Part shown: positions 53,301-59,300 of the stretch, piece after piece
Position numbering within the stretch: position 1 is the first letter of the stretch
Layout of the letters: the number at the start of each line of letters is the position of its first letter
Made by a program: the position numbers
Origin: Escherichia coli
GTDB taxonomy: Bacteria > Pseudomonadota > Gammaproteobacteria > Enterobacterales > Enterobacteriaceae
Length of the DNA stretch: 64,000 nt
Direction: 5' to 3' (one strand)
Assembly: GCF_017348835.2 (NCBI RefSeq)
Contig: NZ_CP071375.1

Positions 53301-56300
53301 GCGACCGTGGCACGCCAGCGCCAACTCCAGCCCACCACCCAGGCAAGCGCCATGAATAGCCGCGATAACCTGAATGGGCAAAGCATGAATCTCCGCCATC
53401 AACTGTTGGCCCTGCCGCGCCAGAGCTTCCGCTTCTTGCGCCGTTTTGCAATTGCCGATCATGTTGATGTCTGCGCCAGCAATGAAGTTGTCCGGTTTAG
53501 CGGAGACAAACACCACGCCTCGCAACTCTTTGTTTTCACGGAGTTGCTTAATAATGGCGCGCACCTGCGAGGCAAACTCCGCCTTCAGGGTATTCATTTT
53601 CTCACCCGGTACGTCGATGGTGATAACGGCAATGTTGTCCAGACGAACATTAAGGGTAAACGCTGATGTCATTTCCATTATTCCGCCTCCAGAACCATTG
53701 CCGCGCCAAGCCCACCAGCAGCACAGGCGGTAACTAAACCAAATCCACCGCCGCGACGGCGAAGTTCATGCAATGTCTGGGTAATCATCCGCGCGCCGGT
53801 CGCCGCGAAGGGATGCCCGTAAGCAATCGAACCGCCAAGCACGTTAAATTTGCTATCGTCCACTTCGCCAGTGGCATGTGCACGCCCCAGTGCTTCACGA
53901 GCAAAACGTTCACTACCCAGCAACTGAATATTCGCCAGTGTCTGAGCTGCAAAGGCTTCGTGCATATCGATCAATGTCAGATCGCTCATCGTCAAACCGG
54001 CACGCTCCAGCGCCAGCGGTGTTGACCAGGCTGGACCGAGCAACATGTCCTGCCAGACATCGATAGCGGTAAATGCGTAGCTGCGCAGATATCCCAGCGG
54101 TACCAGCCCTAATTCTTTCGCCCGGGATTCAGTCATCAGGATCACCGCCGCTGCGCCATCGGTCAGCGGCGTACTGTTCGCAGCCGTTACCGTTCCGTGT
54201 TTACGATCAAACGCCGGACGCAGCTTTGCGTAATCAGCAAGCGAGGAATTACCGCGAATATTGTTGTCTTCCGCGAGCAGTTGTTTATAAGGAGGGATAA
54301 AGGCAGTCATCACCTCTTCTTTGAGTTTTCCGTCTGACCATGCCTGAGCGGCACGCTGATGCGAACGGTGCGCTAATGCATCTTGCTGTTCTCGGGTGAT
54401 GCCGTAGGTTTTCGCCATTTGCTCTGCAGTGTCGCCCATCCGCAAGCCGGTAGAATATTCTGCTACCGCAGGTGGTACGGGCATTAAGTCGCGCAAACGC
54501 AGGCGAGAGAAGAGTTTCAGACGCTGGCTCATTGTGCGGGCTTTGTTGACATCAACCAGCACGCGCGCCAGTTTTTTACTGACGCCAATTGGCAATACCG
54601 AAGAGGAATCTGCCCCACCGGCAATCCCCGCTCGGATAGTCCCCGCCATCAGGCTTTCTGCGACGTTTGCAACCGCCTGGAAACTGGTAGCGCAAGCGCG
54701 GCTGACGCTGTAAGCATCGGTATGCACATTCATTCCAGTACCGAGAACAATTTCACGCGCAATGTTGGGAGCTTCAGGCATTTGTACGACCTGACCAAAG
54801 ACCAGTTGTTCAATCACTTCGGAGGGGATCTCGCTGCGTGCCAGCAGTTCGCCTACCACCATCTTCCCTAAATCAACCGCGGGAATGCCATGAAAAGCCG
54901 TCGCCTGGCGGGCAAAAGGCGTACGTAAACCGCTAACAATGGCGATACGATCGCCCTGGCGGGTAACCAGCGGTAAAACCTGACCCATAACACTCCCCTG
55001 TAAAAAAATAAATAAAGTGGTCTGACCTGATCATAGTCTTAACCATTTTTTTACATTTAGCCAAGCGGAGAAAAGGGAAAGTGGGAGCTATGACACAGAG
55101 AGAAAAGAAGAAGAGAAAAGAAAACGCCCCTGCCAGCAACTGACAGGGGCGTACGTACCCGAGAGGAATTAACGCAGACCCAGCTGGAAGATCAGCATTT
55201 CAGCTTCGCAGGCAAAAGTGAAATCGATATCCAGGCGCACACCATCAGACTCTTCAGTGAAAGTCGGGGAGATTTTGCACGGTTCGGATTCCACGCTACG
55301 GGCTTTCTCAGTCAGTGCCGCCAGCGTTTGTTCTGCTTCTGCGCGGTTTGCAAACACGCGGCTGTAAGACGCGGTGCAGTCGGAGTTGTCCATAATGGTG
55401 CCAACATCCATACAGCAGCAAACCGGGGTTTCATCAGCACTACATTTACTCATCGTTGATTTCCTCTGTATGTGCACCCAAGGTGCCAGATAAACGTTGT
55501 GGATATTTTACGCTTCCGGAAAGTGCTGCTCCAGTTGTTAATTCTGCAAAATCGGATAAGTGACCGAAATCACACTTAAAAATGATCTAAAACAAAATTC
55601 ACCCGAATCCATGAGTGCGCCACCTCCAAATTTTGCCAGCTGGATCGCGTTTCTTAGATCATATTTGAAAAAAGATAGAAACATACTTGCAACATTCCAG
55701 CTGGTCCGACCTATACTCTCGCCACTGGTCTGATTTCTAAGATGTACCTCAGACCCTACACTTCGCGCTCCTGTTACAGCACGTAACATAGTTTGTATAA
55801 AAATAAATCATTGAGGTTATGGTCATGAGCCAGAAAACCCTGTTTACAAAGTCTGCTCTCGCAGTCGCAGTGGCACTTATCTCCACCCAGGCCTGGTCGG
55901 CAGGCTTTCAGTTAAACGAATTTTCTTCCTCTGGCCTGGGCCGGGCTTATTCAGGGGAAGGCGCAATTGCCGATGATGCAGGTAACGTCAGCCGTAACCC
56001 CGCATTGATTACCATGTTTGACCGCCCGACATTTTCTGCGGGTGCGGTTTATATTGACCCGGATGTAGATATTTCTGGGCGTTCCGATTTAACGGGCCAG
56101 CGTGCTGATGCAGATAATATTGCACCAACTGCGTGGGTGCCTAACCTACATTTCGTAGCACCTATTAACGATCAGTTTGGTTGGGGGGCTTCTATTACCT
56201 CGAACTATGGTCTGGCCACGGAATTTAATGATAACTACGCTGCTGGAATCTATGGCGGTAAAACCGATCTGCAGACGATCAACCTTAACCTTAGCGGAGC

Positions 56301-59300
56301 CTACCGCCTTAACAATAGCTGGAGTTTTGGTCTTGGTTTTGATGCTGTATACGCTAAGGCAAAAATTGAGCGTACTGCCGGTTCACTCGGTCCATTGCTT
56401 TCCCAACAACTGATAGCGCAAGGCGTGCCACAAAGTTGGACAAACGGCATCAATACACCGGATTCGCAAATTGCTCATCTCAAGGGTGATGAATGGGGAT
56501 TCGGCTGGAACGCCGGTATTCTTTATGAACTGGATAAAGATAACCGTTGGGGCCTAACCTATCGTTCAGAAGTGAAAATTGACTTTGAAGGAGATTACAA
56601 AAGCTCCATCAACCCAAATCTGAACAACATCTTGGGTAGCATGGGTTTACCATATGGCACAATGGGTGCAACCCAAAATGGGTCCTTAACGCTGAATTTA
56701 CCTGAGATGTGGGAAATTTCTGGCTATAACCGTGTCGCACCACAATGGGCTATCCACTATAGTCTGGCGTATACCAGTTGGAGTCAATTCCAGGAACTGA
56801 AAGCGAAAGGAGACTCTGGTCAAACGCTGTTCTATAAAGACGAAGGTTTCCGGGATGCTTACCGTATCGCGTTAGGTACAACCTACTACCACGATAAAAA
56901 CTGGACCTTCCGTACGGGTATTGCATTCGATGACAGCCCGGTTCCGGCAGATAAACGTTCTATCTCTATCCCAGATCAGGATCGTCTGTGGTTAAGTGCA
57001 GGTGCGACTTATGCATTTAATGAAGATGCATCCATTGACGTTGGTGCATCTTATATGCACGGTCAGAATGTGAAGTTTACTGAAGGTGAAGGGCCAGCAG
57101 CATATACCTTTAAATCTGAAGGTAAAGCCTGGCTGTTCGGTACTAACTTTAACTACGCGTTCTGATAACGCGTTCGCCTGGTTAAAGTCACCTGCTATGC
57201 AGGTGACTTTAACTTCCCCACTTCACCGAAAGTAGTGTCCTCATTGCTTGCCTCCTGAGTTTTGCAAACAGCCTGATGGTAGCTTGCCCTTTCAAATCAT
57301 TAAGTGGTATCCACAGACAAACCTGAAGGGAAAGGCATATTTTCAGGCGTTCTGCTCGTCTTTCTCAAAGAGTTTACTTTTCTGAATTTCCAGGATACTC
57401 AAACCACCCTGGCTATTGTGCGCTCATACACTCAAATTAAAGATAGGGTCTAAATAAATGAGCGTTTTTTGATAGTCTATTTCATTAGGTAATATATATT
57501 TGTAACAAATCAATCAACATGGAATAAAATCATGCTACCATCTATTTCAATCAACAATACCAGCACAGCTTACCCAGAATCCATCAATGAAAATAACAAT
57601 GATGAAGTTAATGGATTAGTACAAGAGTTCAAAAACCTTTTTAATGGTAAGGAAGGAATAAGCACCTGTATTAAACATCTACTTGAGCTTATAAAAAACG
57701 CCATACGAGGAAACGACGATCCTGATAGAATAAATATCAATAATTCTTCAGTTACTTATATTAATATTGGTTCCAATGATACAGACCATATTACTATTGG
57801 TATCGACAACCAAGAACCAATAAAATTACCTGCGAGTTATAAAGACAAAGAACTCGTCCGTACTATCATTAATGACAACATAGTTGAGAAGACTCATGAT
57901 GATATAAATAATGCTGAATTTACTGATGGTATTATTATTAGTGGTATTGATGATCGTAGTGATATTGGTATTGACTCCAATGATACAAACGATATTACTT
58001 TTGATATTGATATTGATATTGATATTGATATTGAAAATCAAGAACCAACAAAATCACCCGCGAACGATGAAAACAAAAAAGTCGGTCAAACCATCATCAA
58101 TGAAAACATAGTAGAGAATACTCATGATATCAATAACAAGAAAATGATCTTCAGCGCAATAAAAGAAATATATGATGAAAATCCAAGTTTTATCTTCGAT
58201 AAAATATCACACAAACTCAGACATACGGTAACGGAATTCGATGAGAGCGGGAAAAGCGAACCAACGTGCTTATTTACCTGGTACGGTAAAGATAAAAAAG
58301 GCGACTCTCTCGCTATTGTAATAAAAAATAAAAATGGAAATGATTACTTATCTCTCGGTTACTACGATCAGGATGGCTACCACATTCAAAAAGGATTTCG
58401 TATTGATGGTGATAATCTCACCCAATATTGTAGTAAAAAAGCCAGGAGTGCTTCTGCGTGGTTTGAACACAGTAAAGCAATCATCGCAGAATCATTTGCA
58501 ACAGGTCCCGATCATCAAGTTGTAAACGAACTCAAAGGGGAAAGACTGAGAGAACCTAACGAAGCTTTTAATCCTTCAAATCTAGCAAGAGGATATGAAT
58601 ATTAAGAGGATGATAGAAAATATACACTTAAGAATACAAAAGAAATAGTTTCTACTTTATTCGGTAACGAAGTTAACGTTGACCATTCTCAAAATATATA
58701 TATGCACTATAAGGAACTCGAAGGTAAAATTGAAGAAAGGCTTCAAAATCGCCAGACGGAATATCAAAATGAAATTAATCAACTATATGCGCCAGGTGTT
58801 AATTTTGATGATATTTAAAATTATTTTTCCAGTTTTTTGATTTTTCAACGCCTGAATATCGGAAATAGTCAGTGACGAACATCAGTATTTTTACATCATT
58901 ACGTCCGGGTCATTGTCGGTTTATCTCCTTTTACTTGTGGTAATTGAGGGATAACAACAAAAAAGGTGAGTTTTGCGACTCACCTTTTTTATTTGTTTCT
59001 TATTCAGAATCGATATCTTTTAAATCATCCTGAATCGCTTGCGCGTTCGGATTTTCCTGCGGTTTGAGTTCGCCGCCATTAGCGATGAAATCATGACGCT
59101 GGAAGTACGCTTCGCGCACCATAATATAAGGATCGGACGACTGACGCAGCAGACCGTCGGAATCCAGCAGCTGAGCGCGGGTTTCGATCCCTTCAAGCGT
59201 CCATTTACCCACAGACATCGGCCAGGTCAACCAGGAAAGAACCGGGTAAAGACCATCCGCCATATCACCACCGTCATCACGCAGCGTGAAGCTACCGTAG

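Follow-up and report, generated by a model that had tools for sequence, protein, structure and literature searches.

A divergent and probably mosaic fadL allele of a minority surface type in Escherichia coli

We analysed fadL, the gene of the fatty acid channel FadL, in a stretch of 64,000 nucleotides (nt) of the Escherichia coli contig NZ_CP071375.1 (assembly GCF_017348835.2), which is referred to below as the window. Taken as a whole, our results are very probably best explained by a functional mosaic fadL that belongs to a rare subtype of a minority allele class (type 2, as opposed to the K-12 class, type 1) and whose persistence would be driven by its surface. An earlier note on this DNA had proposed that the allele may differ from the laboratory reference mainly in predicted surface loops. 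Alignment and a predicted structure support this interpretation at the level of the protein, and the connection of the loop divergence with phage or immune pressure is a step that we infer.

The window holds an intact fadL at its native locus and in single copy. The gene order yfcZ-fadL-yfdF-mlaA is the same as in K-12 MG1655 and in strain PE164. Of 5426 complete E. coli genomes searched, 5425 gave a match, and in all of these fadL was chromosomal, with a median of one place per genome. The product matched the NCBIfam FadL equivalog NF007988 over residues 1–446 in a profile search (830.7 bits, cut-off 585) and Pfam PF03349 (OMPP1/FadL/TodX; 535.7 bits, cut-off 29.7), and the crystallised E. 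coli FadL (PDB 1T16) matched it with an E value of 1e-211. The possibility that the sequence is an artefact, a paralogue or a decaying gene is practically nil: the reading frame is unbroken and single-copy at the native locus, a copy at least 99% identical occurs in 72 independent complete genomes, and fadL is under strong purifying selection. The parts of the gene to which we refer below are the following.

55825–57165, plus strand: fadL open reading frame, intact, 446 codons, from the open reading frame listing; 100% match to fadL of strain PE164 (WP_001307921.1).
55825–55899, plus strand: signal peptide, codons 1–25; the mature chain of 1T16 begins at residue 26 (AGFQLNE; here 55900); protein identical to K-12.
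55900–56025, plus strand: N-terminal hatch (plug), mature residues 1–42, including Phe3 and the N33-P34-A35 motif; protein identical to K-12.
56068–57114, plus strand: divergent allelic block, gene nt 244–1290, codons 82–430, bounded by the extracellular loops L1 and L7, delimited by sliding identity and type-specific differences.
57115–57165, plus strand: conserved 3′ end with the last strand, the C-terminal Phe and the stop codon; identical to K-12.

The limits of the hatch domain are those that we take from established knowledge of FadL structure. A second in-frame ATG is present at 55819, two codons 5′ of the RefSeq start at 55825, and yields the older MVMSQK start.

The 13 kb around fadL were aligned to K-12 and identity was scored in 100-nt windows. 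The flanking 5 kb on either side were 96–100% identical to K-12, identity dropped sharply to 46–80% at about 56049–57114, and it was 94–99% again thereafter. Type-specific differences begin at gene nt 244 (56068) and end at nt 1290 (57114), and both limits are common to all seven type-2 alleles compared for block limits, which came from E. coli and other Escherichia species clusters. DNA identity to K-12 was 79.6% over the aligned part of the whole gene and 69.9% in the block, measured over codons 76–430. Within the block, the identity of K-12 to Klebsiella, Enterobacter or Cedecea is as high as that of the window to K-12. The divergence of this fadL far exceeds chance or the usual variation of E. 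coli core genes.

At the protein level, the pairwise alignment to K-12 FadL that the earlier note had suggested gave 349 identical columns out of 454 (77%), which is not near-identity. The two proteins both have 446 amino acids (aa), and insertions and deletions (indels) fall in L1, L3, L4 and L7, where the window protein differs from K-12 by +1, −7, +2 and +4 residues. The note had described the terminal barrel segments as canonical, and this was borne out: the first 81 codons carry no amino-acid change and a single synonymous difference, and the last 16 do not differ from K-12 at all. It had also quoted three internal peptides as unlike K-12, and all three are present, at aa 80–101, 186–215 and 260–287.

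Synonymous divergence (dS, or pS as the uncorrected proportion) and nonsynonymous divergence (dN) between the window and K-12 were estimated by the Nei-Gojobori method for each partition of the gene.

Codons 1–75: dS 0.018, dN 0.
Whole block: pS 0.73, saturated; dN 0.20.
Membrane strands and periplasmic turns within the block: pS 0.60; dN 0.065.
Extracellular parts within the block: pS 0.82, above the Jukes-Cantor limit, so that dS is not estimable; dN 0.34.

The strands between the loops are thus also anciently diverged at silent sites, and it is purifying selection on the barrel that filters the differences seen in the protein. Because the synonymous sites of the strands are near saturation too, the block represents a separate old allelic lineage and not a loop-wise change. 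These values bear directly on diversification in place, in which positive selection would have acted on point mutations and small indels to alter K-12-like loops. Such a process agrees with the clustering of amino-acid changes in loops, and a few positively selected codons inside types of two highly variable regions (HVR1 and HVR5) have been reported by Cao et al. (2025, Appl Environ Microbiol; PMC12175518). It is nevertheless very improbable, since strand codons are near-saturated (pS 0.60) against a dS of 0.018 in codons 1–75, the block boundaries are abrupt, pairwise dN/dS is far below 1, and the block groups with another genus-level lineage. As the main cause, change in place is refuted by the synonymous divergence, though it could have contributed within types. 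The loop diversification that the earlier note had thought plausible therefore holds for the concentration of changes at the surface but not as a loop-by-loop diversification of the K-12 gene, since the whole L1–L7 block is of an old lineage.

The fadL of the window thus appears to be a mosaic. Its first 243 nt (signal peptide, hatch and first strand) and its last 48 nt are ordinary E. coli sequence, and the 1.05 kb from L1 to L7 derive from a deeply diverged FadL lineage and probably entered the native locus through homologous recombination. Across genera of the Enterobacteriaceae, the DNA of the last 48 nt of fadL hardly varies, and the conserved 3′ end is a likely crossover anchor.

The structure of the window allele was predicted by AlphaFold from a 36-sequence alignment, and the 11 residues adjoining each periplasmic turn were taken as the membrane part of each strand. 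The model agrees with 1T16 and the mutant structures at a template modelling score (TM-score) of 0.85–0.89 and a root-mean-square deviation of 2.7–2.8 Å, and it shows the alternating long strands of a 14-stranded barrel. The hatch is poorly modelled, with a predicted local distance difference test score (pLDDT) below 50; its sequence is that of the crystallised protein. The extracellular regions are the following, with changes counted against K-12.

56062–56130, plus strand: L1 region, codons 80–102; 9 of 23 positions changed, one codon longer than K-12.
56209–56274, plus strand: L2 region, codons 129–150; 6 of 22 changed.
56353–56502, plus strand: L3 region, codons 177–226; 28 of 50 changed, 7 residues shorter; type HVR1_2_0.
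56575–56706, plus strand: L4 region, codons 251–294; 20 of 44 changed, 2 residues longer.
56779–56856, plus strand: L5 region, codons 319–344; 8 of 26 changed.
56935–56982, plus strand: L6 region, codons 371–386; 2 of 16 changed, the least variable loop.
57061–57126, plus strand: L7 region, codons 413–434; 10 of 22 changed, with four additional codons (EGPA) as in Enterobacter soli and Leclercia.

The differences are concentrated on the extracellular side and not evenly spread. In the block, 83 of 199 extracellular positions are changed (42%), as compared with 16 of 156 positions in membrane strands and periplasmic turns (10%; Fisher odds ratio 6.3, p = 2e-11), so that loops and strand extensions account for 83 of the 99 changed block positions. 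None of 68 positions is changed in the signal peptide and hatch. The enrichment is stable when the membrane length is set anywhere from 8 to 14 residues (odds ratio 4.2–7.6, p ≤ 1e-6), and a simple split into strand and non-strand positions gives an odds ratio of 3.9 (p = 4e-8). A runs test that is free of topology found 111 runs where 142.8 ± 7.6 were expected, and none of 10,000 shuffles was as low. The earlier note had proposed mapping the differences onto the FadL crystal structure; the surface location came out as it expected, but our topology was derived from the AlphaFold model and a strand-length rule rather than from crystal coordinates.

A block-only megablast against the 5426 complete genomes separated the two types. 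The K-12-type block was found at an identity of at least 95% in 4213 genomes (77.6%) and the window-type block in 1213 (22.4%), which are counts in this collection and not population frequencies. By identity to the window block, the type-2 genomes fall into 72 at 99% or more, 2 at 95–99%, 1137 at 80–90% and 2 at 60–80%. The window subtype (at least 99%) thus makes up 1.3% of complete genomes. It is found in strains of unrelated background, among them ATCC 8739 (99.8%), enterohaemorrhagic E. coli O145:H28, O157:H16, O78, and avian pathogenic and enterotoxigenic E. coli, from avian, porcine and human isolates. A figure of about 1722 type-2 genomes, obtained from identity bands of a whole-gene megablast, was rejected as an over-count, as identity there was computed on aligned pieces only.

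The window allele and the common form of type 2 (PBP8, E69) are 94.6% identical in protein and 84% identical in block DNA. Their dS, estimated for the window against the PBP8 subtype, is 1.14, similar to the 1.22 of K-12 against Salmonella.

Several alleles are patchworks of these forms. In a sliding comparison EP91B is window-like at gene nt 1–520 and 1201–1260 and PBP8-like at 540–660 and 870–1200, and the allele of MOD1-EC7003 has the L3 segment of the window in common. A Shigella flexneri protein (P0002, 451 aa) combines L1, L2 and L5–L7 of type 2 with L3 and L4 of type 1, and is a chimera between the types. From these three cases, loop-sized cassettes therefore appear to be reassorted both within type 2 and between the types. 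In strain N61 (NZ_AP028880.1), a match to the K-12-type block was limited to the first 397 nt of it, at 100% identity; the fadL of this strain may be a hybrid of type 1 and type 2 or an interrupted gene.

The variation of fadL has been described previously. Cao et al., who surveyed the types in 3,104 genomes, chose the gene as their leading case of mosaic evolution among the outer-membrane proteins of E. coli. They found five highly variable regions with 4, 2, 2, 3 and 2 major types, every region lying in an extracellular loop, a FadL tree incongruent with lineage (MG1655 versus ATCC 8739; S88 versus ED1a), and a few sites positively selected according to PAML, and they stated that the source of the variable regions was unknown. 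Our comparison of the HVR1 strings showed that the L3 of the window is their HVR1_2_0 letter for letter, and ATCC 8739, one of their examples, has the window subtype at 99.8%. The phenomenon is the same, and the window allele shares the loop-confined variability, the discrete catalogued type, and the intragenic recombination with incongruent trees that they reported. It is a known, catalogued class of a gene already published as mosaic, with nothing new in kind. In their account the variable regions are the exchanged units, whereas here the whole L1–L7 block is anciently diverged, strands included. What we add is the extent and depth of this block, the 77.6%/22.4% split, and the placing of type 1 in the Escherichia/Salmonella lineage and of type 2, distantly and without a close donor, beside Leclercia and E. 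soli. We also considered whether fadL belongs to the 'aroC' hotspot described by Didelot et al. 2012, and it does not: this recombination hotspot extends from yfcL to smrB, and fadL is unmentioned.

Among known systems, K-12 FadL (1T16; the receptor of phage T2) is closest, with the same locus, length and family and with signal peptide, hatch, S3 kink and NPA motif identical to those of the window; 23% of aligned columns differ, and 84% of these are extracellular. OmpA, OmpC, OmpF, LamB and FhuA (PMC12175518) likewise have a conserved barrel, loop-confined variable regions and discrete allele classes that recombination has spread over the phylogroups, and are phage receptors. FadL is unlike them: it is neither a general porin nor a TonB-dependent transporter but a monomeric 14-stranded lateral-diffusion channel with a hatch, and its variable block, unlike theirs, spans nearly the whole barrel. 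Work on OmpP1 of Haemophilus influenzae reportedly deals mostly with new within-patient loss-of-function changes and not with long-lived, recombining functional allele classes. A study of OmpP1/FadL in chronic infection (PMC6156194) concerns a surface protein of the FadL family, with variation linked to host or surface pressures. In a paper on Stx (Shiga toxin) phages the mentions of fadL concern knock-outs and not alleles, and one on the gp38 adhesin uses a fadL deletion only.

For the origin of the two types, one genome per GTDB species was scanned (80 loci), and neighbour-joining trees were built from codons 1–75 and from the block. The tree of codons 1–75 is that of the species, with all Escherichia together and adjoining Salmonella and Citrobacter. 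In the block tree, type 1 falls together with E. albertii, E. whittamii, Salmonella and C. amalonaticus, and the sister of type 2 is a clade of Leclercia sp. 29361, Enterobacter soli, E. wuhouensis and a related metagenome-assembled genome. The extra L1 codon and the four extra L7 codons are common to type 2 and the Leclercia/E. soli clade. However, the type-2 block is only 74–76% identical to this clade in nucleotides and 83–85% in amino acids, with pS at 0.75–0.76. No block above about 75–76% nucleotide identity was found outside Escherichia in this set of one genome per species, and no protein in the protein database exceeded 86% identity outside Escherichia and Shigella. The block tree also placed Citrobacter in four places (loci L041, L044, L059, L061 and L077) and Leclercia in two (L011 and L038), where codons 1–75 follow taxonomy. 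Because the block tree is so widely incongruent with taxonomy, transfer of the block between genera does occur, and the FadL surface block appears to be exchanged across the Enterobacteriaceae.

If the block had lately been acquired by horizontal transfer from a known enterobacterial genus, such as Leclercia, Lelliottia or Enterobacter soli, this would account for its sister position in the block tree and the common L1 and L7 indels, and also for the best protein matches outside Escherichia, which are FadL of Lelliottia, Leclercia and Enterobacter at 86% identity, as compared with 77% for K-12. This origin is very unlikely, because the block is only 74–76% identical in nucleotides with saturated synonymous sites (pS 0.75–0.76), because GC content at third codon positions (GC3) is 41.5% against 63–65% in that clade, and because type 2 has already diversified and spread over several Escherichia species. 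Recent import from a sampled species can be considered largely refuted. For comparison, GC3 is 50.4% in the K-12 block and 51.9% in the 5′ part of the window gene. GC3 singled out no donor; the low value of the block would fit a lower-GC unsampled donor or a long AT-biased drift.

Type 2 was also present in four GTDB Escherichia representatives other than E. coli (MOD1-EC7003, E1V33, E69 and SCPM-O-B-8794), all with Escherichia-like 5′ ends. We therefore weighed an ancient balanced polymorphism, in which both types and two type-2 sub-lineages have coexisted in Escherichia since before the split of its species, and frequent recombination inside the species has evened out all sequence beyond the selected loops, so that the block ends exactly at L1 and L7. 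In its favour, type 2 occurs in E. coli and these four representatives; the block limits (nt 244 and about 1284–1290) are the same in all type-2 alleles despite the dS of 1.14 between the window and PBP8; no sampled non-Escherichia species is closer than 75% in block nucleotides; and block GC3 is 41–48% in type 2 against 63–65% in the nearest outside clade. Against it, several introgressions through shared conserved anchors would fit these data too, as the last 48 nt are near-invariant family-wide; the incongruent block tree means that transfer between genera does happen; and the comparison covers one genome per non-coli species. We hold this explanation tentatively, as a serious candidate. 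The data fit an old polymorphism within Escherichia or repeated introgression via the same anchors alike.

A broader form, which we regard as possible but doubtful, is a very old, trans-species balanced polymorphism in which at least three surface lineages, type 1, type 2a (PBP8-like) and type 2b (the window), would have persisted at this one locus for about the time since the split of Escherichia and Salmonella, with the L1 and L7 limits pinned by selection and the pool exchanged across genera of the Enterobacteriaceae. Between types 2a and 2b, synonymous divergence stands at about 1.1; for type 1 against type 2 it is saturated. If true, this would make fadL a compact natural system for frequency-dependent selection driven by phages or antibodies.

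The fadL of the window is most likely functional, to judge from its sequence. The residues for gating and lateral exit, a list that we drew from the names of PDB mutant entries, are F3, N33-P34-A35, A77, S100–A105, the S3 kink, G212 and D348, and all are unchanged in the window and in every type-2 allele checked. The earlier note had also called for a dN/dS analysis across fadL alleles; pairwise values were far below 1 wherever they could be estimated, and dN/dS was about 0.03 among type-2 alleles. From this value and the conservation above, we infer that the FadL of the window takes up long-chain fatty acids.

In K-12, the low-affinity fatty-acid site is built from L3 and L4, and the route leads from capture there to the high-affinity site, after which the hatch N-terminus is displaced and the release is lateral, via a barrel-wall opening (PMC9329746). 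In the window protein, a long-chain fatty acid would similarly be captured at L3/L4 and passed to the high-affinity site, where the substrate would displace the hatch N-terminus and exit sideways via the S3-kink opening. Since no other loops are changed as much as L3 and L4, substrate capture may be affected. We propose that both surface types are maintained as FadL-using phages (T2-like), antibodies or other surface-targeting agents favour the rarer type, with the result that a type-2 surface would escape agents adapted to the K-12 type. A functional divergence, in which the changed L3 and L4 alter the uptake of hydrophobic substrates and ecology, not phages or immunity, keeps both types, draws on the same loops: L3 (28 of 50) and L4 (20 of 44) are the most changed, and they compose the low-affinity binding site (PMC9329746). 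It is unlikely, however, as the deeper transport machinery is wholly conserved and the same hosts yield strains of both types.

Several points count against a functional, surface-driven minority allele as we propose it. The complete-genome collection is biased to clinical clones, and the loops were delimited on a model whose confidence is moderate (pLDDT 70.5), together with the strand-length rule. Concerning selection by phages or antibodies, pairwise dN/dS is below 0.1 where estimable, with no sign of positive selection, and in the extracellular partition, at a pS of 0.82, dN/dS between the types is inestimable. Transport and phage or antibody escape of the window allele are predicted only. 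The preprint of Gaborieau et al. reported that outer-membrane-protein variants had no association with infection patterns; it typed 12 receptor proteins at 99% identity, and its main text contains no FadL-specific statement. The dependence of T2 on FadL is documented for K-12 FadL only (PMC8594841).

FadL serves both as a channel for nutrients and as a receptor for phages, and its use as a target of antibodies or vaccines has been proposed. Only about three quarters of the sequenced E. coli have the K-12 type of FadL surface, and about 22% differ at roughly 40% of exposed positions. The split into types thus bears on the prediction of phage host range, on phage-therapy cocktails and on antibody design. 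For the strain of the window itself, it only shows the carriage of a rare allele of the ATCC 8739/O145:H28 type.

Several neighbouring regions of the window also differ from K-12. On the 3′ side of fadL, yfdF (57532–58605, plus strand) has a GC content of 31–34%, as compared with about 50% in its neighbours, and its product and K-12 YfdF differ. Residues about 77–128, a module of about 60 aa, are repeated at about 145–204 with a DIDIDIDI run, and the C-terminal third is unmatched in K-12; YfdF gave no Pfam or NCBIfam match. The gene is missing in strains PBP8 and FDAARGOS_1304, in which mlaA directly follows fadL, and a hypothetical gene of 1200 nt takes its place in 2017-02-2CC.

Further downstream, argW, a tRNA-Arg(CCU) gene, lies at 61057–61131 on the plus strand, and beyond about 61115 the region up to 63165 has no similarity to K-12. 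At the argW site K-12 has the CPS-53 prophage integrase, and PE164 has a DUF4942 fragment, an oligosaccharide transporter of the major facilitator superfamily (MFS), a PfkB kinase pseudogene and an IS3 transposase. Because PE164, which is identical to the window there, holds these other genes, the region is a different island from that of K-12 at the same tRNA site.

Upstream, the end of the yfc fimbrial operon (49825–50848, comprising yfcV and the spacer before sixA) is 45–88% identical to K-12 when scored in 100-nt windows, and identity is 94–100% from sixA onward. The yfcV end thus appears to be another divergent surface-structure allele near fadL.

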